Below, one piece after another: positions 22,169 through 38,548 of a DNA stretch of 38,548 bases. Under the pieces are notes generated by a model, which was given only the letters and a program-made list of their open reading frames with translations, had not been told where the DNA came from and did not search any database. The position numbers and the translations under genes are program-made. The stretch lies in the IMG/VR virus record IMGVR_UViG_2718217885_000011. One strand, written 5' to 3'. The DNA is from a virus. Its lineage: Duplodnaviria; Heunggongvirae; Uroviricota; Caudoviricetes. Numbering within the stretch: the first letter of the stretch is position 1; each line of letters opens with the position of its first letter.

Positions 22169-23935
22169 ATGAACACCACACTGACACCCGCAGATCTCGA
22201 TCCCCGTCGGCAGGCCATGCTGCTGTACTTTCAGGGATACCGCGTAGCCCGCATTGCTGAAATGCTGGGCGAGAAAGTTGCAACCGTTCACAGCTGGAAA
22301 AAACGCGACAAGTGGGGTGACTATGGGCCGCTGGATCAGATGCAGCTCACCACCGCCGCACGCTACTGCCAGCTCATTATGAAGGAGCACAAAGAAGGGA
22401 AAGATTTCAAAGAGATTGACCTGCTGGCGCGCCAGTCGGAACGCCACGCGCGGATCGGCAAGTTTAACAATGGCGGCAACGAAGCCGACTTAAACCCTAA
22501 CGTCGCCAACCGCAACAAAGGCCCACGCCGGCAGCCGGAAAAGAACGTTTTCACCGATGAACAGATTGAGAAGCTGGAAGAAATTTTCCATTCCTCCATG
22601 TTCAACTACCAGCGCCACTGGTGGGAAGCCGGAAAAACCAACCGCATCCGCAACCTGCTGAAGTCACGCCAGATCGGCGCGACCTTTTACTTTGCCCGTG
22701 AAGCCCTGATTGACGCCCTGCTTACCGGACGTAACCAGATTTTCCTTTCCGCCAGTAAGGCACAGGCCCACGTCTTTAAACAGTACATCATCGACTTCGC
22801 CAAAGAAGTGGAGGCGGAGCTGAAAGGCGATCCGATGGTGCTTCCCAACGGGGCCACGCTTTACTTCCTCGGCACCAATGCCCGCACTGCCCAGAGTTAC
22901 CACGGCAACCTGTATCTGGATGAATACTTCTGGATACCGAAATTCCAGGAGCTGCGCAAAGTGGCTTCCGGTATGGCTATTCACAAAAAATGGCGACAAA
23001 CCTATTTTTCCACACCATCCAGCCTGACACACAGTGCTTATCCGTTCTGGTCCGGTGCGCTGTTTAACCGTGGGCGCAACAAAGCCGATAAGGTGGACAT
23101 CGACCTGTCCCACAACAATCTGGCCCCCGGCCTGCTGTGCGCAGACGGGCAATACCGCCAGATAGTCACCGTGGAAGATGCGGTACGCGGCGGCTGTAAC
23201 CTGTTCGACCTCGACCAGCTACGCATGGAGTACAGCCCGGACGAATATCAGAACCTGCTGATGTGCGAGTTCGTGGACGATCTCGCGTCCGTGTTCCCGC
23301 TCAGCGAACTGCAGGCGTGCATGGTGGACAGTTGGGAAGTCTGGACCGATTTTCATGCACTGGCCCTGCGCCCGTTTAGCTGGCGCGAGGTGTGGATCGG
23401 TTATGACCCGGCAAAAGGTACGCAGAACGGCGACAGCGCCGGATGCGTGGTGGTGGCACCGCCAGCCGTGCCAGGCGGTAAGTTTCGCATTCTTGAGCGT
23501 CACCAGTGGCGCGGGATGGACTTCCGCGCCCAGGCTGATGCAATCAAAAAACTGACCGAGCAGTACAACGTGACCTATATCGGCATCGACTCGACAGGCG
23601 TCGGTCACGGGGTTTATGAGAACGTGAAAGCGTTCTTTCCTGCCGTCCGGGAGTTTGTCTACAACCCCAACGTTAAAAACGCTCTGGTACTCAAGGCCTA
23701 CGACATTATCAGCCACCGCCGTCTGGAGTTTGACGCCGGACACACCGACATAGCGCAGTCCTTTATGGCAATCCGTCGCGCCACCACCGCCAGTGGCAAC
23801 CGCCCGACCTATGAAGCCAGCCGCAGCGAAGAAGCCAGCCACGCCGATCTGGCATGGGCAACGATGCACGCACTGTTTAACGAACCGCTGCAGGGCGAAT
23901 CCGCCAATACCAGCAATATTGTGGAGATTTTTTGA
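22169..23935 (+). CDS. terminase ATPase (large) subunit P
   Basis: 588-aa ORF divergent from O, P2 P size. Confidence 0.9.
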   Translation: MNTTLTPADLDPRRQAMLLYFQGYRVARIAEMLGEKVATVHSWKKRDKWGDYGPLDQMQLTTAARYCQLIMKEHKEGKDFKEIDLLARQSERHARIGKFNNGGNEADLNPNVANRNKGPRRQPEKNVFTDEQIEKLEEIFHSSMFNYQRHWWEAGKTNRIRNLLKSRQIGATFYFAREALIDALLTGRNQIFLSASKAQAHVFKQYIIDFAKEVEAELKGDPMVLPNGATLYFLGTNARTAQSYHGNLYLDEYFWIPKFQELRKVASGMAIHKKWRQTYFSTPSSLTHSAYPFWSGALFNRGRNKADKVDIDLSHNNLAPGLLCADGQYRQIVTVEDAVRGGCNLFDLDQLRMEYSPDEYQNLLMCEFVDDLASVFPLSELQACMVDSWEVWTDFHALALRPFSWREVWIGYDPAKGTQNGDSAGCVVVAPPAVPGGKFRILERHQWRGMDFRAQADAIKKLTEQYNVTYIGIDSTGVGHGVYENVKAFFPAVREFVYNPNVKNALVLKAYDIISHRRLEFDAGHTDIAQSFMAIRRATTASGNRPTYEASRSEEASHADLAWATMHALFNEPLQGESANTSNIVEIF

Positions 23936-24966
23936 TGGGAAAGAGTAAGAAGAACCGAGCTGCGGCGACGAAACAGATCCAGCTTAAAAGTCAAACTACA
24001 GCCGAAGCATTCAGCTTCGGCGATCCCGTTCCTGTTCTGGACCGCCGTGAACTGCTGGACTATGTGGAATGCGTACAGATGGACCGCTGGTATGAGCCTC
24101 CCGTCAGCTTTGACGGACTGGCGCGCACCTTCCGCGCTGCCGTGCATCACAGTTCCCCGATTGCAGTAAAGTGTAACATTCTGACCAGTACCTATATCCC
24201 TCATCCTCTGCTCAGCCAGCAGGCTTTTTCGCGTTTTGTGCAGGACTATCTGGTATTTGGCAATGCCTATCTGGAGAAACGCACGAACCGCTTCGGTGAA
24301 GTGATCGCCCTTGAACCTGCGCTGGCAAAATACACCCGACGCGGATTAGACCTAGATACCTACTGGTTTGTGCAATACGGTATGACAACCCAGCCGTATC
24401 AGTTCACGAAAGGCAGCATTTTTCATCTGATGGAACCGGATATTAATCAGGAGATCTACGGCCTGCCCGGTTATCTTTCTGCCATTCCGTCAGCCCTGCT
24501 CAACGAGTCCGCCACGCTGTTCCGCCGTAAGTATTACATCAACGGCAGCCATGCAGGCTTCATCATGTATATGACCGATGCCGCGCAGAACCAGGAGGAT
24601 GTGAACAACCTCCGCAACGCGATGAAAAGCGCCAAAGGCCCTGGCAACTTCCGCAATCTGTTTATGTACTCGCCTAACGGCAAAAAGGACGGACTTCAGA
24701 TTATCCCGTTGTCAGAAGTCGCAGCGAAGGATGAGTTTCTGAATATCAAGAACGTGAGCCGTGATGACATGATGGCTGCGCACCGCGTGCCACCACAGAT
24801 GATGGGGATTATGCCAAGTAATGTTGGCGGGTTTGGGGATGTGGAGAAGGCCAGTTGCGTCTTTGTCCGTAACGAACTGATGCCTCTACAAAAACAACTC
24901 GAGGGGCTCAATGAATGGTTAGGGGAGAAAATTATGCGTTTTGAAAAATATGAACTAACTCTTTGA
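23932..24966 (+). CDS. portal (capsid vertex) protein Q
   Basis: 344-aa ORF, start overlaps P stop, P2 Q size. Confidence 0.9.
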   Translation: MMGKSKKNRAAATKQIQLKSQTTAEAFSFGDPVPVLDRRELLDYVECVQMDRWYEPPVSFDGLARTFRAAVHHSSPIAVKCNILTSTYIPHPLLSQQAFSRFVQDYLVFGNAYLEKRTNRFGEVIALEPALAKYTRRGLDLDTYWFVQYGMTTQPYQFTKGSIFHLMEPDINQEIYGLPGYLSAIPSALLNESATLFRRKYYINGSHAGFIMYMTDAAQNQEDVNNLRNAMKSAKGPGNFRNLFMYSPNGKKDGLQIIPLSEVAAKDEFLNIKNVSRDDMMAAHRVPPQMMGIMPSNVGGFGDVEKASCVFVRNELMPLQKQLEGLNEWLGEKIMRFEKYELTL

Positions 24967-25009: not shown

Positions 25010-25711
25010 TTAAATTTCCCTTTCAAGAATATGAGAAACTATTGTCTCAGTTAAATATTTAACCATACCCTCGTTAGCACAGACAGAACCATTCTTCGAT
25101 ATCTCAAATTCACAACGATGTCCTAGAACATATCCTGCCGCCCTGACCTTATCAAGAGAATATGCTTTATCCCCAATAATATCCTTCACATCATCAAATG
25201 CATTTTTCTTAGATGTAACCTCTACGGTTGCCTTAGAGTTATCATTAACTATCAAATTACTAACCTTAACCTTCTTGATACTAACAAGTTCCAAATCATA
25301 TTTTTTATGCAGCGAATCCAAATACTCAGACAGTTTAATATCAACGATGCCAAACCCTATTTTATAACCTGAATCCGCACTAAGTCGCTCTGTCAAAGCC
25401 TTTATTGATTTTGGTGGATTGTAAACTGATAATAAATATAACCTACCTATGAGTTTAGATATAGAGAACTGAATTGACTCATAAGTAATGAACTCTTGTT
25501 CATTTTCGTTACCCAAAGGATCAACTGAAGTCTGTTTATTCAACTTAGCTTCAGTATACTTAGCTGATAGTACGTCAGATGAAACTTCAAAGTCAGAATA
25601 ACCATAGCCAAGTTCTTCAGAGTATTTGTTACTCTTTATATAAAAAGCAATCTCACTTAATGTAAGATTAGACTTCAATCTATTCCATTTAACTCTGATC
25701 AGACTTTCCAT
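25010..25711 (-). CDS. cargo operon gene 3, hypothetical protein (233 aa), no recognisable domain
   Basis: ATG start with GGGGAAG SD-like sequence, 23-nt overlap with the upstream gene; AT-rich codon usage unlike the phage core. Confidence 0.7.
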   Translation of the reverse strand: MESLIRVKWNRLKSNLTLSEIAFYIKSNKYSEELGYGYSDFEVSSDVLSAKYTEAKLNKQTSVDPLGNENEQEFITYESIQFSISKLIGRLYLLSVYNPPKSIKALTERLSADSGYKIGFGIVDIKLSEYLDSLHKKYDLELVSIKKVKVSNLIVNDNSKATVEVTSKKNAFDDVKDIIGDKAYSLDKVRAAGYVLGHRCEFEISKNGSVCANEGMVKYLTETIVSHILEREI

Positions 25712-26813
25712 CTTTCTTCCCCTGAGCCTGTTTATTTAGTTCAATTATAATGGAACGGGCTGCCTTTTCAATCATACGACTAAAAAATAACTTCTGACTA
25801 TCTTTCAACTGGACTGTTGACTTATTATACTCGCCACCCCCTTTGTATTTTTTAATACCTTTAGCTATATATGAAAACCCCTTAAAATTTTGAGCGTCGT
25901 TAAATTGCGCTTCAAACTCAAAAATATTTGGATCCGCACCTTTCTCTTTAACTCGCCATTTAATTTTACATATATAAAAGCCACGCTCATAAAGTGAGTA
26001 GATTTCTTCAGATTTGAGCACCCCTTCCCCTTTCAACGATGCCTTACTAACATGTACTCCTAAATCTGTTTCGCCGTCTTCCTCTTCAATCTCTTCTGGT
26101 TTTGGGTGATAAACATAAGCATCTGTTACATCATCGAGTTCATAACCTTCAAGCCCATTTATTAATTTCGTAAAGAAATCAGTTCTGGACTGAGGGGAAT
26201 CAATGTTTTCTAGACTTATTTCTTGGATATCGAGAGTAGCGTCCGAAATTGGTTTTCCTTCCTCAATCGCTCTTTCCTTTGATAATCTTTCAACGATAGC
26301 AAGTAACTGATTCTCATAAACCTCAGTTTGCTCATTATCTGGACGGCGAATCACATAACCAGCTTCTGTTGGCTCTACCTCTATGACAGCTTGCTTTTTA
26401 ACGACTTGTTTGAAATCACTTTTTGAAAAATTTGTTGACATATAAGTTATATGAATATTTATCATGCCACTTTTATCAGCAACTATATGGCAGAGGTCTT
26501 TTTGGTCTGTTAACTCTTTTTTTAGCGAATCCGCCGCTTTTAATAAAATTGTTTTTTCAGGCATATTAGATACTAATCTTGAAGTAGAACGCTCCCTCCG
26601 AGGCTCACTTCCTAATATCTCTGCAATTTTCTGATGATCATAGTAATCATGAGTGAACTTTGAGAAGTTTTTAGCTAATAATTTTCTATCGGTGTTTTTT
26701 GAAATAATTATACCTCTTGAAAGATAAAGCTCTCTCATCTCATTTTGAGTTACTTGTGACTGGTTAAGAGCATCACATAAAACCTTATCCGTCACACTAT
26801 AAATATTGCTCAT
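25689..26813 (-). CDS. cargo operon gene 2, hypothetical protein (374 aa) with acidic stretch, no recognisable domain
   Basis: ATG start 1 nt after the stop of gene 1 (TGA-T-ATG); long uninterrupted AT-rich ORF. Confidence 0.7.
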   Translation of the reverse strand: MSNIYSVTDKVLCDALNQSQVTQNEMRELYLSRGIIISKNTDRKLLAKNFSKFTHDYYDHQKIAEILGSEPRRERSTSRLVSNMPEKTILLKAADSLKKELTDQKDLCHIVADKSGMINIHITYMSTNFSKSDFKQVVKKQAVIEVEPTEAGYVIRRPDNEQTEVYENQLLAIVERLSKERAIEEGKPISDATLDIQEISLENIDSPQSRTDFFTKLINGLEGYELDDVTDAYVYHPKPEEIEEEDGETDLGVHVSKASLKGEGVLKSEEIYSLYERGFYICKIKWRVKEKGADPNIFEFEAQFNDAQNFKGFSYIAKGIKKYKGGGEYNKSTVQLKDSQKLFFSRMIEKAARSIIIELNKQAQGKKDGKSDQS

Positions 26814-26814
26814 A

Positions 26815-27879
26815 TCAATAATCCCAAGATGTTGATTCAGTACTATAAAACTCTTTAACTGTAGGAACTAAATAAATATCCATAGAAAGTAGTTTTTCCT
26901 TTGCACTATCATCATAATTCCAATCAAAAGCATACTTCTGAAGTGCCCGTTTAAAATGCGATCTTATTGAATCATTCCGATCTTTTGTCGCGATACGTAT
27001 TCTTATGTTGTTTTTTCCATTCAGAATCTGGTAGTTAGTTAAAAGATCAAAGAGATAATAAAACTCCATATCTGTGGAGCCCGGACGATTATAATATACA
27101 ACATACCCTGCAGGATAAACTTCAACTTCTCTTTGTAGCTCGCGATTATACGAGTAAACTGCATCATGTTTAATAATTAAAAATGGAGCAGTCAAAGACT
27201 CTATCGTTGCAGGTAAATAATCATCGGTGACAATTACCTTATGATATGTAAGTTGAGGGTAATAAAAACCATACTCATCTCTCGGGAATTGATTATCTCT
27301 GATTAATTCATTCATATCTGCGATTATAGATAACATATAGCTAATCGACTTAGGCTCAATTATATGTATTTGTTGCCCATCAGACACTTTTATATTATCT
27401 AATTTAACTGCCTTCGGCTTTCTTTTTCTTCCTGCAGGTTTGGGAGGATCGAAGAAATCATAAAAGTTATGCTCAAAATCGTTATCATGATTATAAACAA
27501 ACAATAACCCTCTAACCTCACTATCCCCAACGCATATATTATATTTCTCTCTCCACTCCGGACTATATTGAGCACAGGAAATTGTATACCCTAGGGATGT
27601 CAGCGCTTTTTCTATCATGTCAGGATTAATAGAACCCTTAGAGTAACTTTTTAGGTCAGTATTCAATAAAATAGTTTTATTTAAATAAGGGTCTTTATAG
27701 CTAAAAACCACATCGACAGGGTGTGTATGAGCCTGCTTTTTTTCGAGTGGTTTATGATTTTCTTCGTCAATACATCCAAAGTCCTGATCACACGGCCCTG
27801 ATATGCTCCATTTAAAGCGCTCAAAAATCTTCGATGATACTATCTTTGCTAATTCTTCTATCGGTCCGTTCTCAGCCAC
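26815..27879 (-). CDS. cargo operon gene 1, hypothetical protein (~354 aa); possible PD-(D/E)xK-like motif (HPVD ... ILLNTDLK)
   Basis: ORF open to TTG at 27912; GTG at 27879 preceded by AAGGGGA is the preferred start; no P-loop. Confidence 0.65.
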   Translation of the reverse strand: MAENGPIEELAKIVSSKIFERFKWSISGPCDQDFGCIDEENHKPLEKKQAHTHPVDVVFSYKDPYLNKTILLNTDLKSYSKGSINPDMIEKALTSLGYTISCAQYSPEWREKYNICVGDSEVRGLLFVYNHDNDFEHNFYDFFDPPKPAGRKRKPKAVKLDNIKVSDGQQIHIIEPKSISYMLSIIADMNELIRDNQFPRDEYGFYYPQLTYHKVIVTDDYLPATIESLTAPFLIIKHDAVYSYNRELQREVEVYPAGYVVYYNRPGSTDMEFYYLFDLLTNYQILNGKNNIRIRIATKDRNDSIRSHFKRALQKYAFDWNYDDSAKEKLLSMDIYLVPTVKEFYSTESTSWDY

Positions 27880-28007
27880 AATACATCCCCTTAACCTGAT
27901 CTTTCTCGGCAAAATCCTATGGACAAGATAAGTAAATCATTGTTCCTTTGCAAGAATGGAGGCGCATTATGCTTAGTAGTGAAATATGACATCAAGCGCG
28001 CGCTCGT

Positions 28008-28026
28008 ATCCCCGCCACGCCTGCCC
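28008..28026. other. probable cos site (cohesive end region)
   Basis: reverse complement reads GGCGTGGCGGGGATACGAG; first 12 nt match the 19-nt cohesive end of phage 186 as recalled, P2's differs at one of them. Confidence 0.45.
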
Positions 28027-28400
28027 GCTTTATGCAGTGGTTTTCATGCACATGCATAACATGAGCAAAAGCCCGCCAGTTCTGGCGGATCTGAGCAAAG
28101 ACGATCCTCAATCGATCATGCGATTTCATGCAGCATAGTCATGCACTGTCAAGGAAGTGAAAATCCGTATCTGAATGGCCACTTGAAAAACGGATCATAC
28201 GGGTTTACAAAGATGAATGTTCGCTGTGAACGGGAAGCGGAAGTTAACTTTCAGATAACATAATCCATATGCACGAGAACCTCTAAAATAGAATGGGACA
28301 CCTAAGCGGGGTACTTACAACGATTCTTTCCATATTCACAGTTAACACTCTGTTTGGCGTATTTTTATTCAAATAGCAAACACCAATAAAAGGAGTTTCC

Positions 28401-28736
28401 ATGAACAATATTCCCCCTATACCACAGTTAGGAATTTATGTCTCAAAAATCGATCCCACCCTACGTATCACTGTAACCGATGTTGATATTGTTGATGGTG
28501 AGGATGATTCTCCTGATGATGAATTGTTTTATTTAGTCCACTGGATCGAGGGGGAAGATGAAAGTGATATGACAGCAATGGGATTTGAGCTAGACCCAGT
28601 AGAGTGGCAGGCTTTCGTTGAATCTGAGCAATTAGTGTTTGAGCGTGATCCGTACATGGATTCAATCCCCGAAAATTCAAACTTGGCAAAGATTCGGGAT
28701 TTTCTCATGAAGACTAAACAGAATGATCATTCGTAA
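28401..28736 (+). CDS. small highly acidic hypothetical protein (111 aa)
   Basis: ATG preceded by AAAGGAG SD; strongly acidic (Asp/Glu-rich); AT-rich. Confidence 0.65.
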   Translation: MNNIPPIPQLGIYVSKIDPTLRITVTDVDIVDGEDDSPDDELFYLVHWIEGEDESDMTAMGFELDPVEWQAFVESEQLVFERDPYMDSIPENSNLAKIRDFLMKTKQNDHS

Positions 28737-28928
28737 GTGTAAGCATCCATCAGGAAAATGGTTTTGTAAGTGAATCATCAACTTTTAGAGAGTCTCAGAC
28801 ACTCCCACTTCTGCTTCTGACACAAAGCGGACGATCACTTATCAAAATAACCGCCCACCTTACGCCTTATTTCACTCATTGCCCAAACTAGCCCCCATCA
28901 GAATGAATCCTCCTGGGGGCAACATTTC

Positions 28929-29162
28929 TTAATGCAGCCAGCTGTCGTCCTCCCACACCTTCTGCATAATTTTCATCACTTGTTTTCTTTCTTCATCCAG
29001 TTGCAGTCCGGTTAGTTCCACACCGTTAGAGCTACCTTTGCGAATGCGAATTACCGTTTTGGGATACAGGGGGCGCAGATTGCGGTAAAGCTCGGATTCA
29101 AGGGCGTCCAGGGTAGACTGGCTAATCTTCTGCTCTTTATCGATCATTATTTCAATGCGCAT
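28929..29162 (-). CDS. DinI-family protein
   Basis: MRIEIMIDKEQ...VWEDDSW resembles E. coli DinI (MRIEVTIAK...TWESADDW); GAGGTGA SD before the internal ATG; ORF track extends to 29234. Confidence 0.75.
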   Translation of the reverse strand: MRIEIMIDKEQKISQSTLDALESELYRNLRPLYPKTVIRIRKGSSNGVELTGLQLDEERKQVMKIMQKVWEDDSWLH

Positions 29163-29172
29163 AAAAGTCACC

Positions 29173-29361
29173 TCAGCTGATGACATCCATTGAGCGGTTG
29201 TATTCGTGGCTTCTGATTTTTGCCATGAGTTCATCAGTCAATTCAGAAACCCACTGCAGAGCCAGCCCCTTCTCTTCATCACTACACTCACTAGCCGCTA
29301 CAAGCTTAAGAAAAAAATCAATGCGCTGGAGCTTCAAAGACTCCAAAAAATAGTCCTGCAT
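29173..29361 (-). CDS. small hypothetical protein (62 aa), first gene of SOS-box operon
   Basis: ATG with AGGAGG SD; LexA box about 45 bp upstream. Confidence 0.55.
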   Translation of the reverse strand: MQDYFLESLKLQRIDFFLKLVAASECSDEEKGLALQWVSELTDELMAKIRSHEYNRSMDVIS

Positions 29362-29403
29362 CTTTCCTCCTATGACACCAAAACAATACTGTATAAATAA
29401 CCA

Positions 29404-29419
29404 CTGTTTATATTTACAG
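29404..29419. promoter_or_regulatory. LexA (SOS) box CTGT-N8-ACAG
   Basis: aCTGTttatatttACAGta matches the consensus taCTGTatatatataCAGta at all conserved positions. Confidence 0.6.
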
Positions 29420-29513
29420 TATATAATAATCTTACTGATGTAAAACGTTTTTTTACGTTCATCGGCCTGATATGCCTGGTATTATTAAGAGCACGAATTG
29501 TCAACCCGCGTAA

Positions 29514-31928
29514 TTAATACAGGTTCCGCCACTTATCATCTTCCTTCAGACGCTGGTTCCGATAGAAGATACGCAGGCCTGCTCCTGACGGAATACTGCC
29601 GCCGCGAAGGAGCAAATCGACTTCTTTCTCGCTGCCATCAAATCCCCTGGACTTCAGTTCATAGACGAGCTGCTGTCGCTGATGGTCTGTAATTCGCTGT
29701 TTGTAGTCTTTACGCCGTTTCGGTTTCACCTGGCGTAACCTTGCAGCCAGTTCCCGGCGCTCTTTTTTGCTCATACTGTGCAGGTAATTGTGCAACTCCT
29801 TGTCATTCATACGGGTAATATCCGTTCTGGAGTCCCCATCAGCTGATTTGTCTTTCCCTTGCTGGTTCAAATTTTCAGCAAGGGGACAGTTATTGCCACG
29901 AGTCCAAGGGGCGCAAGCGCCCTGGTCGGCTGCCGCCTCCTGAACGTCAACGGCCTTACGAACCATTTTCCACTTCACTGCATGAGTGCAGATCTTGCCC
30001 TCTGCAATGGGTGACCAGATGCCATAAATACGAATGCCGTGATCGCCATAGGCGGTCGGCTCTTCGTTGATTTCATAAGCGGTTCTGATGAGGTGATATT
30101 TGCGGGGAACCAGTACGCCGCCCTGCTTCATGATGTAGGTGGCAAAACAACCAGCATCAGCAGCAGCCAGGATGGCATCAAGGCGTGGGTTATCCAGTAC
30201 CGGCGCACCTGCTTTTTTGTCCCCCTGTTGCCTTGCCGCCTGACCAGCCAGCAATCGCAGTTCACGGTAAGCCTGACGCCCCGGAATGCCAAAGAAGCGG
30301 AATTGCTGAACACGATGCAGAGACGCCCAGGCATTAACGTATTCAGCGTTATCACGCAGGGATTTACCCGTTTCCTTGCTGATCTCGCCAGCCAGACCAC
30401 GCCCGTCAATGTTCTTACTGATGTATTTCGCGATGTAGCTTGTTGGCGTACCTTTGCGCGGGTTTATCAGCTCAGACTTAAAGCGTGGTCCTGTGTTATT
30501 ACCCAGCTCCTCGCGGTCTTCACGAATGGCAAACTTACGCAACAAAGCAGTAATGGCGCGGCGATCTTTTTTGCGCATAAAACACAACAGGTGCCAGTGA
30601 ACTGTACCGTCATGATGCGGCTCAGCCACCCGCACGCCATACCAGCGCAATCCGGCTTTGTACATCGCCTTACGAAATGCAGCAAACATGCCGACCAGAT
30701 AATCACTGCTTTGTCTTACCGTCGCATTTGTCCAGGTCGGGTTGGGCCTGCCGTTATTTAGCGTGGAATGGAAACGTGACGGACAGGTGATGGTGTAGAA
30801 AACGGCGCAGTCGCCACGCATTTCCGCGATAAGCTCCAGACCTTTAACACAGGCCATCATCTCATTGCGGCGATGCGCAGGGTTGCTGCTGCTGGCGTTT
30901 ACCACATCCTCCATGTCCAGAGTGTCGCCGTCTTCGTTCACCAGTTCATGAGAACGGAAAAACTCCAGCGACTTACGGCGCTGCTCACGTTTATGCATCA
31001 CGGCTTCATAGCTGACATAGGGAGATGCTTTTTTGCTGACAAGGCAGACAGCACGCAACTGCTCTTCCCGCCATTCGCAACGCATCTTCCATAATTTCCG
31101 ATACCACCAGTCGGCGCACAACATACGCGCCAGCGAACCCGGAATGAGTTCATAGGGCACGGGTTTACGGCGGTTTCTTTTCCGACGGAGTTGCTCAAAC
31201 GCAGGCGGGATGACATCCAGACGCACGGTTTCCGCTGCCACCTTTTCCCATGTCTTGCGGATTTCTGCTGGCTTAACGTCATCGGTGGCATACAAATCGC
31301 CACAAGCTGCATCAAGGCACATGCTCATATGCGCAGCTACCAGGGTGGACAGGCGTTTCACCTGATCCTGACTCATTTCAGGCAGGATCAGCAGGCCGTC
31401 CAGCCCTTCATGGCTTGCCATAAAGCGAAAAGAAGTGGATAGCTGACTGTCGCGTACATGCTCCAGTCGTTCAAGACATGGCTTAATCGTCTCACGCAAA
31501 TAGCGGAAATAAGCCTTTGGCCTGCCCAGGCTGCTGAAGTATTCAATACGTTGCATCAGCGGCTTGCTGATGTGGGAAGGCTGGGCATTGACGTCCGCCA
31601 GAATGACCATTTCTGGATTAAAACGCTGCTGCTCATGCGCCAGCTTTGCCCGGCTAATGAGCTTATCCTGCTCCATTCCGCGTTGGACAGGATCACGGGA
31701 TTCATTAAAGAAATAACGCTCCCAGACCTGCTCACTCAGTGCCTCGTGGCGCAGTTGTTCCTGCTCGTTATCGGCAGCGTACAGAGTGATCAGGTTTGAA
31801 AGTGCAGACTCCGGCGCAACTTCCGCCGGGTCCAGATAAGGGTTAATGGCCTTTTTCGGGCCGTTCCATGAAAATGATGCAGCGGCCTCGTTAAAGCCGC
31901 TAGAGTTGCTCATATCGTCATAACTCAT
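29514..31928 (-). CDS. replication initiation protein A (rolling-circle HUH endonuclease)
   Basis: 804-aa ORF with HWHLLCF (HUH) and YIAKYISK (catalytic Tyr) motifs as in P2 gpA. Confidence 0.9.
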
Positions 31929-34670: not shown

Positions 34671-35609
34671 ATGTCAACTCAAAAAATCACATTTCGCCAT
34701 ATTGAAGATAGTCTGAAAGCTATGGTCATGCAGAATCGTGGAGGGCAAAAAGTCATTGAGAGGATACTCAAGGCCTATGGTTTCAAATCACGCCAAGCCT
34801 TCTGTAAGCATCTTGGTATTTCACAAAGCACAATGGCTAATAGATATGCACGCGATACCTTCCCTGCTGATTGGGTTGTTATATGTTCAATGGAAACTGG
34901 CGCATCCCTAGAATGGCTGGCCTTTGGTTCTAACAATGCAGAAGAAAGTTTCCCCCCTTATGTGGAACAACATGATGAAACAGTCCCACATGAGGGGTTT
35001 AACAGCAACGCTCATCAATCATCCTTTAAGCGCCGCATTGAGAATCACATTGAGCTTACTAACGGAGGAAAAGCCGCGATAGAGAGGATTGTTAATGCTT
35101 ACGGGTTTAAAACCCGCCAAGCCTTAGCCGACCACCTTGGTATTTCAAAAAGCACATTAGCCACACGATACATGCGAGATTCTTTCCCTGCGGATTGGGT
35201 GATTAAATGCGCATTAGAAACCAAAGCGGATCTCGCCTGGCTAGTTACAGGAATCGAAACACCAAATAGTTCACAAGAAGAAAACACTGTAATTTTAAAT
35301 AAGTTCAATTTGGTCAATGGCGTGCTTGTCGAGTCAGGTTTTTTATCCATGGATCGGTGTCTACTTCCGAAGCAAGAAACTAGCAGCTTGATGTTTGTAA
35401 GCAATGGAGAAAAACATGTCATATGTGATAAAGAATTTCACCTAATTAGAGATGGAAAATGGTTAGTAGGAATTGACAATGAGTTATCTTTAAAAGAGTT
35501 AACTCGTTTACCTAAGAACAAAATTCTTGTTTCTGGTGGGAGTAAGGATTTTGAGTGTTCCATTGAGGATATTCAAATTATAGCCAGCATTATCTTAACA
35601 ATACAATAA
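34671..35609 (+). CDS. CI-type immunity repressor (186 CI family) with tandem duplicated N-terminal HTH domain
   Basis: two ~65-aa repeats (IERILKAYGFKSRQAFCKHLGISQSTMANRYARDTFPADW... / IERIVNAYGFKTRQALADHLGISKSTLATRYMRDSFPADW...) plus a C-terminal domain resembling 186 CI. Confidence 0.8.
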   Translation: MSTQKITFRHIEDSLKAMVMQNRGGQKVIERILKAYGFKSRQAFCKHLGISQSTMANRYARDTFPADWVVICSMETGASLEWLAFGSNNAEESFPPYVEQHDETVPHEGFNSNAHQSSFKRRIENHIELTNGGKAAIERIVNAYGFKTRQALADHLGISKSTLATRYMRDSFPADWVIKCALETKADLAWLVTGIETPNSSQEENTVILNKFNLVNGVLVESGFLSMDRCLLPKQETSSLMFVSNGEKHVICDKEFHLIRDGKWLVGIDNELSLKELTRLPKNKILVSGGSKDFECSIEDIQIIASIILTIQ

Positions 35610-35652: not shown

Positions 35653-37422
35653 ATGAATCATCATCTTTCAAAGATTTCTATAAAAAACTTTAGATCTTGC
35701 AAAGATATTGATATCAATTTTTCTTCATTCACGCCTTTAATCGGTTACAACAATGCTGGTAAGTCAACGATTTTAAATGCTATTGAATGGCTTTTTAAGA
35801 AAAAACTTTTGTCCTCTGATGATTATACTAATCCAGATAACCCTATAGAAGTTATAGGTACAGTTAAGGGTATTACTGAAGATATTTTGTCAGCTTTAAC
35901 AGAAGAAAACAGAACTAGAATTTCACCCTACATTATTGATGGGGTATTGATATTTAAGCGTCAACAGACTGTTGGTGCTCAAAGTGCAAAAGACGTCAGA
36001 TTATTAATTAAAAACCCAGAAAATAACGAATTCAGGACATCACCAACGGGTATTGAGAATGCGATAAAAGCTTTATTTCCAGACCCAATACGTATAGGTG
36101 CAATGGAAAATGCAGCGGATGATTCTTCAAAATCAAAAACAGGAACTACAATAGGTAAGTTGCTGGCAGAATTGAGTTGCAAAATAGAAGAGAAGCACAC
36201 TCAAAGGATACTAAGCCATTTAAATGCCGTTAATAGAAGAATGACTGCAACCGGTAATAAACGAATATCGGACCTCAATGATATTGATGATTCAATAAGT
36301 AGTAAACTTGCTGATTTCTTCCTTGGGATAAGTTTAAAACTACACTTCGAACTCCCTGACTTCAAGGATATATTTAAATCTGGGACTGTAAAAGTATATG
36401 AAGATTCATTTCCCGGCATTGCTCGTGACTGTTCTTCTTATGGTCATGGCACACAGCGTTCGATTCAGATGTCTCTAATAAGACATTTAGCTGATATAAC
36501 CAACGGTGATGATATTAAAACAACTACTCTACTGTTAATAGATGAACCTGAGTTATATCTTCACCCATTTGCTATCGAACAAATTAGAGAATCTCTAAAA
36601 ACACTATCTCATCATGGATATCAAATAATTTTCTCTACCCATTCATCTCAAATGATTACCTCTGACTTAGCAAAAGACACTGTGTTAATCAGAAAAAACA
36701 GTCAGCGTGGCACTCATTGCAGATTAACATTAAAAGAAGCAGTCAATAAAGTAATCGAACAACGACCAGCACAAGCAACCCATTTATTTTCATTAACACA
36801 GTCTTCAAAAGTTTTGTTTGCTAACAATGTAATACTAACAGAAGGTAAAACAGAGACTACTCTGCTCCCATTTATTTTTAACAAAGTTAAAAATAAAACA
36901 TTAGGTCAGATGCAAATAGCACTAATTGAAACAGGGTCCGTTGAAAGTATATCTAAAACGATGCAAATTCTAAATTCAATGGATATACCTACAAAAGCAA
37001 TTGTTGATTTAGATTTTGCGTTCCGCGGTGCAATAAGGAACAACTTCTTAGAACATAATGACGAGGATATTTTACGACTAAAAGAAATCTTGAGAAGTAT
37101 GCATGCTAATGGAGAATGCACTCTCGATGGATCCGGTTTGCCTACAAAGGGTAGTAACACTACCGCAGCTGAAGCATTTGCTATTATGTCTCAAAAGCCC
37201 GGCGCCAGAGAATTTTTGTCATCATTAGCCGCAAAACTGAGAAATGCAAATATTTGGATTTGGCTAAATGGTTCGATAGAAAACCATTTGGGTCTTACAG
37301 AAAAAAATGAATCAGTATGGGCTGATTTCAAAACAAAAGCAGATACACAACCTCTTTCAGATATCTGTGCAGATTTCGAAAGTATTGAGGCTTTAGTCGA
37401 CTGGATTACCCCTGACGTATGA
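35653..37422 (+). CDS. OLD-family ATP-dependent endonuclease (ABC-type ATPase + TOPRIM), P2 Old-like class 1
   Basis: Walker A GYNNAGKST, Walker B LLLIDEPELYLHP, FSTHS, then TOPRIM-like VILTEGKTE and VDLDF; 589 aa (P2 Old ~586 aa); strong GGAGG SD. Confidence 0.85.
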   Translation: MNHHLSKISIKNFRSCKDIDINFSSFTPLIGYNNAGKSTILNAIEWLFKKKLLSSDDYTNPDNPIEVIGTVKGITEDILSALTEENRTRISPYIIDGVLIFKRQQTVGAQSAKDVRLLIKNPENNEFRTSPTGIENAIKALFPDPIRIGAMENAADDSSKSKTGTTIGKLLAELSCKIEEKHTQRILSHLNAVNRRMTATGNKRISDLNDIDDSISSKLADFFLGISLKLHFELPDFKDIFKSGTVKVYEDSFPGIARDCSSYGHGTQRSIQMSLIRHLADITNGDDIKTTTLLLIDEPELYLHPFAIEQIRESLKTLSHHGYQIIFSTHSSQMITSDLAKDTVLIRKNSQRGTHCRLTLKEAVNKVIEQRPAQATHLFSLTQSSKVLFANNVILTEGKTETTLLPFIFNKVKNKTLGQMQIALIETGSVESISKTMQILNSMDIPTKAIVDLDFAFRGAIRNNFLEHNDEDILRLKEILRSMHANGECTLDGSGLPTKGSNTTAAEAFAIMSQKPGAREFLSSLAAKLRNANIWIWLNGSIENHLGLTEKNESVWADFKTKADTQPLSDICADFESIEALVDWITPDV

Positions 37423-37495: not shown

Positions 37496-38548
37496 ATGGC
37501 AGTACGAAAACTCACCACAGGAAAATGGCTTTGCGAATGTTACCCCGCCGGACGTAGTGGGCGTCGGGTGCGTAAACAATTCGCCACCAAAGGCGAAGCT
37601 CTGGCTTTTGAGCGCCACACGATGGAAGAAACCGAAGCAAAGCCCTGGCTGGGTGAATCAGTGGATCGTCGAACACTGAAAGACGTGGTTGAGCTATGGT
37701 TCAAACTACATGGTAAATCTCTGACAGCTGGGCAGCATGTCTATGACAAATTGCTGTTGATGGTTGACGCTCTGGGTAATCCTCTTGCAACCGATCTCAC
37801 CTCTAAAATGTTTGCCCACTATCGAGATAAACGCCTGACAGGCGAGATCTACTTCAGCGAGAAATGGAAGAAAGGAGCAAGCCCGGTCACCATTAACCTG
37901 GAGCAAAGCTATCTAAGTAGTGTTTTTAGCGAACTATCCCGTCTGGGCGAATGGTCGTATCCGAACCCACTGGAGAACATGCGAAAATTCACCATCGCAG
38001 AAAAAGAGATGGCATGGCTTACCCATGAGCAGATTGTTGAATTGCTGGCTGATTGCAAACGTCAGGACCCAATTCTGGCACTGGTAGTTAAGATATGCTT
38101 AAGCACAGGCGCACGCTGGCGTGAAGCCGTAAATCTTACCCGCTCACAGGTGACCAAATACCGAATTACCTTTGTCAGAACGAAGGGGAAGAAAAACAGA
38201 AGCATCCCTATCAGTAAAGAGCTTTACGAAGAGATCATGGCGCTTGATGGGTTCAATTTCTTTACAGACTGCTATTTTCAATTTTTATCCGTGATGGAAA
38301 AAACGTCTATCGTGCTCCCTCGCGGTCAACTCACACACGTTCTGCGCCATACGTTTGCGGCGCACTTCATGATGTCGGGTGGAAACATTCTCGCCTTACA
38401 AAAAATTCTCGGACACCACGATATAAAAATGACTATGCGTTACGCACATCTGGCACCAGATCATCTGGAAACGGCGCTCCGTTTCAATCCTCTGGCAACG
38501 CTGCCAAGTGGCGACAAAGTGGCGGCAGCGGTTGGCATTACCCCGTAA
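37496..38548 (+). CDS. int: tyrosine integrase (P2/186 family)
   Basis: 350-aa ORF; N-terminus like 186/P2 Int; C-terminal HxxR...Y catalytic region (LRHTFAAHFMMSGGNILALQKILGHHDIKMTMRYAH). Confidence 0.9.
   Translation: MAVRKLTTGKWLCECYPAGRSGRRVRKQFATKGEALAFERHTMEETEAKPWLGESVDRRTLKDVVELWFKLHGKSLTAGQHVYDKLLLMVDALGNPLATDLTSKMFAHYRDKRLTGEIYFSEKWKKGASPVTINLEQSYLSSVFSELSRLGEWSYPNPLENMRKFTIAEKEMAWLTHEQIVELLADCKRQDPILALVVKICLSTGARWREAVNLTRSQVTKYRITFVRTKGKKNRSIPISKELYEEIMALDGFNFFTDCYFQFLSVMEKTSIVLPRGQLTHVLRHTFAAHFMMSGGNILALQKILGHHDIKMTMRYAHLAPDHLETALRFNPLATLPSGDKVAAAVGITP

Follow-up and report, generated by a model that had tools for sequence, protein, structure and literature searches.

Gene content of the prophage and its cos region

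The stretch of DNA analysed here, called the window throughout (38,548 nucleotides; IMG/VR record IMGVR_UViG_2718217885_000011), is a segment of an E. coli-type chromosome with grxA and a ybjL-like permease gene at its left end. It carries a P2/186-like prophage with tail and head genes, a Dam-like methylase and CII in addition to the genes listed in Table 1. To locate cos, we joined the cosL and cosR annotated in P2 (NC_001895) and aligned this junction to the window; the 19-nt cohesive-end equivalent lies 380 bp before the ATG of the gene under study, ybl33. A cos region of ~150 bp is common to 86 P2-like phage records. The ybl33 gene is placed between gpQ and gpA beside cos and is variable among related prophages, identifying it as cargo of the P2 gpA-gpQ hotspot. 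In the window it is monocistronic and convergent with a DinI-like gene that is present in prophages with or without ybl33.

On the other side of cos is a three-gene operon, considered here as context only, whose products match the PADLOC models Hp1, Hp2 and Hp3. A system of three hypothetical proteins from this same hotspot protects against P1 (Rousset et al. 2022, PMC9122126). The name Rst_3HP is used in the literature, and its application to this Hp1-3 operon, abbreviated 3HP below, is our own attribution.

Several features of the core genes were observed alongside. The DinI-like gene is annotated in RefSeq as 77 aa, while its longest ORF is 101 aa. A 62-aa ORF without a family match (29173-29361, − strand), followed by the DinI-like gene, lies just downstream of gpA; in phage 186 this position is taken by the Tum antirepressor and a DinI-like gene. 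The window CI matches the Phage_CI_repr HTH domain twice, and the CI of the BL21 prophage is 189 aa long; from the sequence, the N-terminal DNA-binding domain of the window CI appears to be duplicated.

Table 1. Positions of the genes, cassette limits and candidate signals in the window.
Feature	Position	Strand	Evidence or remark
Terminase gpP	22169-23935
Portal gpQ	23932-24966
Three-gene defence operon (3HP)	25010-27912	−	PADLOC Hp1 5.5e-64, Hp2 2.5e-47, Hp3 6.9e-09
Conserved cos region	27996-28147		Joint between left cargo arm (3HP) and right cargo arm (ybl33)
cos cohesive-end sequence	28003-28021		Reverse complement of P2-type 19-mer, 14/19 bases identical to P2
771-bp cassette	28148-28918		blastn; replaced by 68 bp in collinear E. 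coli ET734 prophage
Upstream non-coding segment travelling with ybl33	28215-28400	+	Presumed promoter/regulatory region
Weak promoter candidate, −35-like TTCACA	28335-28340	+	Read by eye
Inverted repeat ACAG-N8-CTGT	28338-28353		Conserved upstream; overlaps TTCACA
Weak promoter candidate, TATTTT	28360-28365	+	Read by eye; 19 nt after TTCACA
Shine-Dalgarno AAGGAG	28390-28395	+	Read from sequence; 5 nt before ybl33 ATG
ybl33 (DUF8087)	28401-28736	+	ORF list and sequence; 111 aa, ATG start
DinI-like gene	28929-29234	−	Pfam DinI 1.2e-22; end of gpA operon, convergent with ybl33
Replication endonuclease gpA	29514-31928
186-type CI repressor	34671-35609	+	312 aa
Full-length Old homologue	35653-37422	+	PADLOC Old 5.6e-232; AAA_15/AAA_21 and OLD-like TOPRIM
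Integrase	37496-38548

ybl33 is an acidic gene under purifying selection

The ybl33 product contains 15 Asp, 11 Glu, 4 Lys and 3 Arg residues (Asp and Glu together 23%), corresponding to a computed net charge of −19 and a pI of 4.05, and is the most acidic among the window ORFs of at least 90 aa. The GC content of the gene is ~0.39-0.42, compared with ~0.52-0.55 for the phage backbone and ~0.33 for the neighbouring 3HP operon. A preliminary description made from the sequence alone had reported a 111-aa ORF with a Shine-Dalgarno element, a high Asp/Glu content, AT-richness and transcription divergent from the three-gene operon across cos. All four of these observations were borne out, the 488-bp spacer between the two transcription units indeed holding cos.

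We found that a purine-rich Shine-Dalgarno element is retained, with substitutions, at the same position in loci from seven other genera or contexts, and that the DUF8087 gene keeps its full length across genera. The median pairwise dN/dS of 11 homologous coding sequences from several genera is 0.17 (46 pairs). This value shows ybl33 to be a real gene under purifying selection. The lack of a domain of assigned function in the product, and of a consensus promoter upstream, would be compatible with a spurious ORF or a decaying remnant without function. However, this reading is contradicted by the dN/dS and by the conservation across genera of the full length, the Shine-Dalgarno element and the upstream region, and we give it practically no credence.

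DUF8087 is a catalogued but sparsely distributed family

The preliminary description had called the protein an orphan, which is contradicted by its family relationships. Ybl33 matches PHROG 17127 over residues 1-111 at E 2e-70. A total of 61 clusters at 90% identity match it, every one of them with a precomputed PF26332 (DUF8087) assignment, and an exhaustive search with the family profile recovered 34 representatives at 50% identity, distant ones included. E. coli BL21(DE3), REL606, W and E2348/69 encode exactly the window protein, as WP_001059831, which is named 'DUF8087 domain-containing protein' in RefSeq and Ybl33 in UniProt, and this exact protein occurs on at least 1000 contigs. We observe the ybl33 region at high identity in ~130 of 5426 complete E. 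coli genomes. With ~1305 of the E. coli genomes matching cos, ybl33 is carried by ~10% of E. coli P2-like prophages. At the level of species-representative genomes the family is found in only 5 of 185,579. A tblastn search for Ybl33 gave no match in 50,697 phage records and a single one in 72,556 plasmids, on a 45-kb non-mobilizable replicon.

Searches against functional annotation returned little. A Pfam-A scan of Ybl33, with a copy of Pfam that lacks the PF26332 model, found no family at E ≤1; NCBIfam and PADLOC scans gave no match, PADLOC having no model for ybl33; and a family-profile search of PDB sequences found no chain at E ≤10. We found no literature on DUF8087, PHROG 17127 or ybl33, the three names under which the family is catalogued without an assigned function. 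The longer members (127-152 aa) were considered as domain fusions and rejected as such, since they look like products of N- or C-terminal extensions or alternative starts. A distant subgroup (P0072, P0074, P0075, P0079 and P0085 in our collection) has a basic N-terminal extension of ~20 residues, MG(Q/E/D)AK.RG..E.R, which is absent from the Enterobacterales proteins.

The two cargos are joined at cos and assort independently

Comparison with other prophages places the two cargos of the window on different arms. Genomes bearing ybl33 start matching the window at 27991-27996, and genomes bearing 3HP stop matching at 28147. The right arm of the window (27996-29600) is 99.9% identical to BL21(DE3), and the left arm with 3HP resembles that of E. 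coli ET734. In the ET734 locus (L026), blastn homology to the window covers 27800-28147 and resumes at 28919, the intervening cassette being absent. Because the breakpoints coincide with the borders of the 150-bp cos region, we conclude from the sequence comparison that cos is the joint of a mosaic prophage, its two cargos being independent modules that recombined there. It has been proposed that cos drives cargo exchange (PMC9122126), and the mosaic seen in the window fits this proposal.

The cargo beyond cos changes from genome to genome, and ybl33 assorts independently of it. We found a retron reverse transcriptase with its effector across cos from ybl33 in BL21(DE3), GmrSD in E. coli W and in six further loci (L008-L013), and a DprA-like gene in EPEC E2348/69. 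Table S5A of PMC9122126 adds other retron reverse transcriptases and an AAA_15/AAA_21 ATPase in the same position, and lists the Ybl33 protein just as 'hypothetical'. A query spanning 3HP, cos and ybl33 returned no genome with both cargos among the 5426 complete E. coli genomes, so the combination seen in the window is absent from that set. Two genomes with 3HP continue from 3HP through cos straight into dinI, without ybl33.

These data bear on the functional link to the adjacent operon that had been suggested from the sequence alone. The divergent arrangement across the shared 488-bp spacer, seen only in the window, would suit a regulator, antitoxin or immunity partner of the 3HP operon. Against such a role, none of the ~130 complete E. 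coli genomes with ybl33 has 3HP, both genomes with 3HP lack ybl33, the spacer contains cos, the recombination joint of both arms, and PADLOC models 3HP as three proteins and has no match for ybl33. A partnership with 3HP is thus contradicted by the co-occurrence data, and we regard it as very improbable. A more general role as a type II antitoxin or nuclease immunity protein is not supported either, as the neighbours of the gene vary in every context and form no conserved operon with a cognate toxin.

Limits of the cassette and its upstream region

An alignment of eight loci from different mobile elements shows that homology starts ~190 bp before the ATG, so that a non-coding segment travels with the gene. 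In the window, homology of the cassette stops ~40 bp after the ybl33 stop codon; in some islands it continues into a second gene, which encodes a 127-aa protein. This second gene (L002 7659-8042, L005 8538-8921 and L006 8538-8921) is preceded by a conserved intergenic stretch of ~200 bp, and its product, which has no PADLOC match, seems to be hydrophobic in its N-terminal part, where a membrane helix may lie. The DUF8087 gene and the gene of the 127-aa protein possibly make up a version of the cassette with two genes.

The proximal 100 nt upstream of the gene diverge at a Jukes-Cantor (JC) distance of 0.13, whereas coding dS is ~0.27-0.41. This lower divergence shows that the proximal upstream region is under constraint, and a promoter or operator is presumably the cause. 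A scan for consensus sigma-70 promoters found no site on the + strand upstream of ybl33, and the pair of hexamers in Table 1 is a weak candidate. The conserved inverted repeat that overlaps the −35-like hexamer may, judging from its sequence, be an operator. In the LexA box the half-sites stand in the opposite order to that in ACAG-N8-CTGT, and for this reason LexA control of ybl33 was rejected. We also rejected an RNA element, as the upstream segment has no meaningful match to an Rfam family and a folding energy that is not unusual (z −0.74). The homologues of the Klebsiella type, described below, are entirely without the upstream DNA of ybl33, and therefore the protein is the functional unit.

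DUF8087 genes recur in cargo slots of integrated elements

In P2, old-tin lies on the A side of cos, starts ~150 bp from cosR and is transcribed away from cos towards A. The ybl33 gene is in the same slot between cos and gpA, in the same orientation and likewise running towards the A operon. In sequence, Ybl33 is unrelated to either P2 protein, Old being a 589-aa ATPase-Toprim nuclease. P2 Tin is held to act by poisoning of, or interference with, another protein through protein-protein contact rather than by catalysis.

A different slot is used in P2-like prophages of Klebsiella and Enterobacter, which encode a DUF8087 homologue at 71-76% identity. There the gene order is repressor, Flk_N, DUF8087 and integrase, all on one strand with gaps of ~10-25 nt, and the DUF8087 gene overlaps the start of int. 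From what is known of P2 and 186, we take this repressor-to-integrase operon to be the lysogenic transcript. Flk_N (PF27202; 211-215 aa) always precedes DUF8087 in it, and the Flk_N proteins (L014 6343-6990 and L029 5341-5976) have no PADLOC match. In the window, the Old homologue lies between CI and the integrase, inside the lysogeny operon and not beside cos as in P2. Because the window carries Old where the P2-like prophages of Klebsiella and Enterobacter carry DUF8087, comparison of the gene orders indicates that the two swap between the same two slots, cos-gpA and cI-int. Defence hotspots of P2-like phages have been recognised at both positions (PMC9122126; PMC13586616).

Beyond P2-like prophages, we observed the cassette at 85-90% identity in islands of Morganella, Raoultella and E. 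coli IMT16316. It adjoins a gene for a 1169-aa helicase-PLD protein in Morganella, in an island that also has DUF932, Antirestrict and IrmA genes; is flanked in Raoultella by a P4-type integrase gene and a Lamassu-like operon; and adjoins IS elements and a gene for a 1589-aa DEAD-box helicase in IMT16316. Distant homologues (~30-45% identity) from Nitrosospira and metagenomes are encoded beside an integrase gene or opposite alpA-gpA. Their elements are small and integrative, with TIR-STAND, SRA-HNH, BglII restriction-modification, Gabija-like and DEAD-helicase cargo. In sum, DUF8087 genes turn up repeatedly in the slots that several kinds of integrated elements use for lysogenic conversion and defence.

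A further homologue, 33% identical, stands alone in Pantoea sp. (L031 6001-6309), ~330 bp from the tRNA-Leu(taa)/tRNA-Cys cluster beside pgsA-uvrC. The P2-like prophages of Klebsiella and Enterobacter with DUF8087 adjoin the same tRNA cluster, and the Pantoea gene appears to be all that is left of a decayed prophage.

Predicted fold and conservation of acidity

We modelled Ybl33 with AlphaFold2 from a 28-sequence alignment. The model has moderate confidence (pLDDT 78.8, pTM 0.64; mean pLDDT of the five models 41-79) and shows strands at residues 11-15, 22-31, 43-50, 61-64 and 78-82 and helices at 66-76, 84-87 and 94-108. Ybl33 is thus predicted to be a small compact beta-barrel with helices, one of them C-terminal, and a pair of acidic loops. 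In the model the barrel looks SH3/Tudor-like, with the DUF1653 protein 3be3 and other small beta-barrels (FeoA, EF-P domain I and Tudor/CarD-RID) as candidate resemblances. Foldseek found nothing at E ≤0.001 for the model in PDB or BFVD. The core common to distant relatives comprises residues 5-82, in which P8, G11 and W69 are invariant.

All 56 aligned DUF8087 members are acidic, with net charges of −8 to −22 and pI values of 4.53 or less, so that strong acidity is conserved down to ~30% identity. The conserved Asp and Glu positions cluster at residues 26-41 and 51-56, in the loops between strands 2 and 3 and strands 3 and 4, and at E63-E68. Since every member is acidic and the acidic positions themselves are conserved, the charge is selected for and not incidental. 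The Pfam-A and NCBIfam scans detected no enzymatic domain in Ybl33.

DNA mimics of the Ocr and ArdA type had been named in the preliminary description. As a class, DNA mimics bind a DNA-binding protein and display carboxylates on their surface in the pattern of the phosphate backbone of DNA. T7 Ocr and ArdA, which are inhibitors of type I restriction-modification enzymes, resemble Ybl33 in being small, of extreme negative charge and encoded by mobile elements. They fold as helices, with Ocr being elongated and imitating bent B-DNA, whereas Ybl33 is predicted to be a beta-barrel with helices. No match to Ocr or ArdA was found by the Pfam, PDB sequence or structure searches. In the absence of any structural or sequence match, kinship of Ybl33 with Ocr or ArdA is rejected, and no function can be transferred to it from its fold.

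Proposed function of Ybl33

Our best guess, held tentatively, is that Ybl33 is a stoichiometric acidic decoy or inhibitor with an interference function on the side of the prophage. The gene is autonomous cargo: a cassette of a single gene and the upstream region that travels with it, placed on the side of cos that faces gpA. It would be expressed from the integrated element, because it lies in the old-tin slot, belongs to the cI-int operon in Klebsiella and Enterobacter, and takes positions opposite the replication operon elsewhere. Since Ybl33 has no catalytic signature, we propose that it acts stoichiometrically, by occupying the nucleic-acid-binding surface of a basic protein. The protein blocked in this way may belong to a competing phage or satellite that enters the cell, in the manner ascribed to P2 Tin. 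Few precedents exist for a stand-alone exclusion factor of 111 aa, which counts against this reading, as do the missing consensus promoter, the moderate confidence of the fold model and the lack of a PADLOC model. Acidity alone does not show mimicry, and some hotspot cargos are unrelated to defence, such as partition systems and toxins (PMC9122126).

The closest alternative is that Ybl33 is an anti-defence mimic of nucleic acid that blocks a DNA-targeting defence of the host, for example restriction, with a function like that of Ocr and ArdA and an unrelated fold. The small size, the net charge of −19, the 23% Asp and Glu, the family-wide acidity and the carriage by mobile elements only would all suit such a mimic. 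An Antirestrict gene (PF03230) lies ~4 kb from DUF8087 in the Morganella island, and prophages can express anti-defence genes constitutively. However, neither sequence nor fold is similar to Ocr, ArdA or any solved mimic. Anti-restriction mimics are typical of plasmids and phages, the genes of Ocr and ArdA typically being early phage genes or lying in plasmid leading regions; unlike these, DUF8087 is nearly absent from plasmids (1 of 72,556) and from isolated phages (0 of 50,697). Additionally, DUF8087 occupies slots used by lysogenic-conversion and defence genes, and known anti-defence genes are rare in P2-like elements (28 of 1511, with detection limited to known families; PMC13586616), which also argues against this function. 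We consider an anti-defence mimic unlikely on balance. The anti-defence or regulatory accessory role proposed from the sequence alone is partly supported: the acidity stands, and the link to 3HP does not.

Ybl33 could also regulate the life cycle of the element, for example as an antirepressor or by modulating integrase or the initiation of replication, and would then sequester a DNA-binding regulator by operator mimicry. CarS of Myxococcus xanthus is an SH3-like antirepressor that mimics operator DNA; like Ybl33, as modelled, it is small and acidic with an SH3-like barrel topology, and would be a precedent for DNA mimicry by such a fold. The recurrent position of DUF8087 beside the integrase gene, including the overlap with int in the cI-int operon, its divergence from alpA-gpA, where a master repressor would sit, and the predicted SH3/Tudor-like barrel are consistent with this. 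Yet only ~10% of E. coli P2-like prophages carry ybl33 and close relatives are without it, a distribution that suits cargo better than it does a core regulator. The E. coli gene is in a cargo slot and not in the immunity region, and the cassette is found at 85-90% identity in unrelated islands with different regulators. A regulatory role is therefore improbable in our estimate.

Between interference from the prophage and anti-defence during entry, we lean towards the former because of the location, the base rates of the hotspots and the near-absence from plasmids and isolated phages, with nothing being decisive. The evidence for the direction of action, defence or anti-defence, consists of location and base rates only. 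In a broader form of the decoy reading, which is possible but less likely than not, DUF8087 would found a new fold family of acidic decoys in the lysogenic-conversion slots of P2-like prophages and int-alpA-gpA islands, expressed from the integrated element and neutralising a nucleic-acid-binding protein of a phage or satellite or of a host defence.

The cos-proximal hotspot of P2 is among the richest known sources of anti-phage systems, and many of its genes are still annotated as 'hypothetical'. The window clearly illustrates how crossover at cos can join two cargo arms that are exchanged independently of each other. As ybl33 is conserved, assorts independently and is present in BL21(DE3), REL606 and W, its function is directly testable by deletion and expression. 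If Ybl33 indeed works as a decoy or inhibitor, the few acidic protein mimics would be joined by a new structural family, and single small non-enzymatic genes of such hotspots would deserve screening. Were DUF8087 indeed the founder of a decoy family, a one-gene, non-enzymatic module of immunity or counter-immunity would have gone unnoticed in BL21(DE3), W and EPEC E2348/69.
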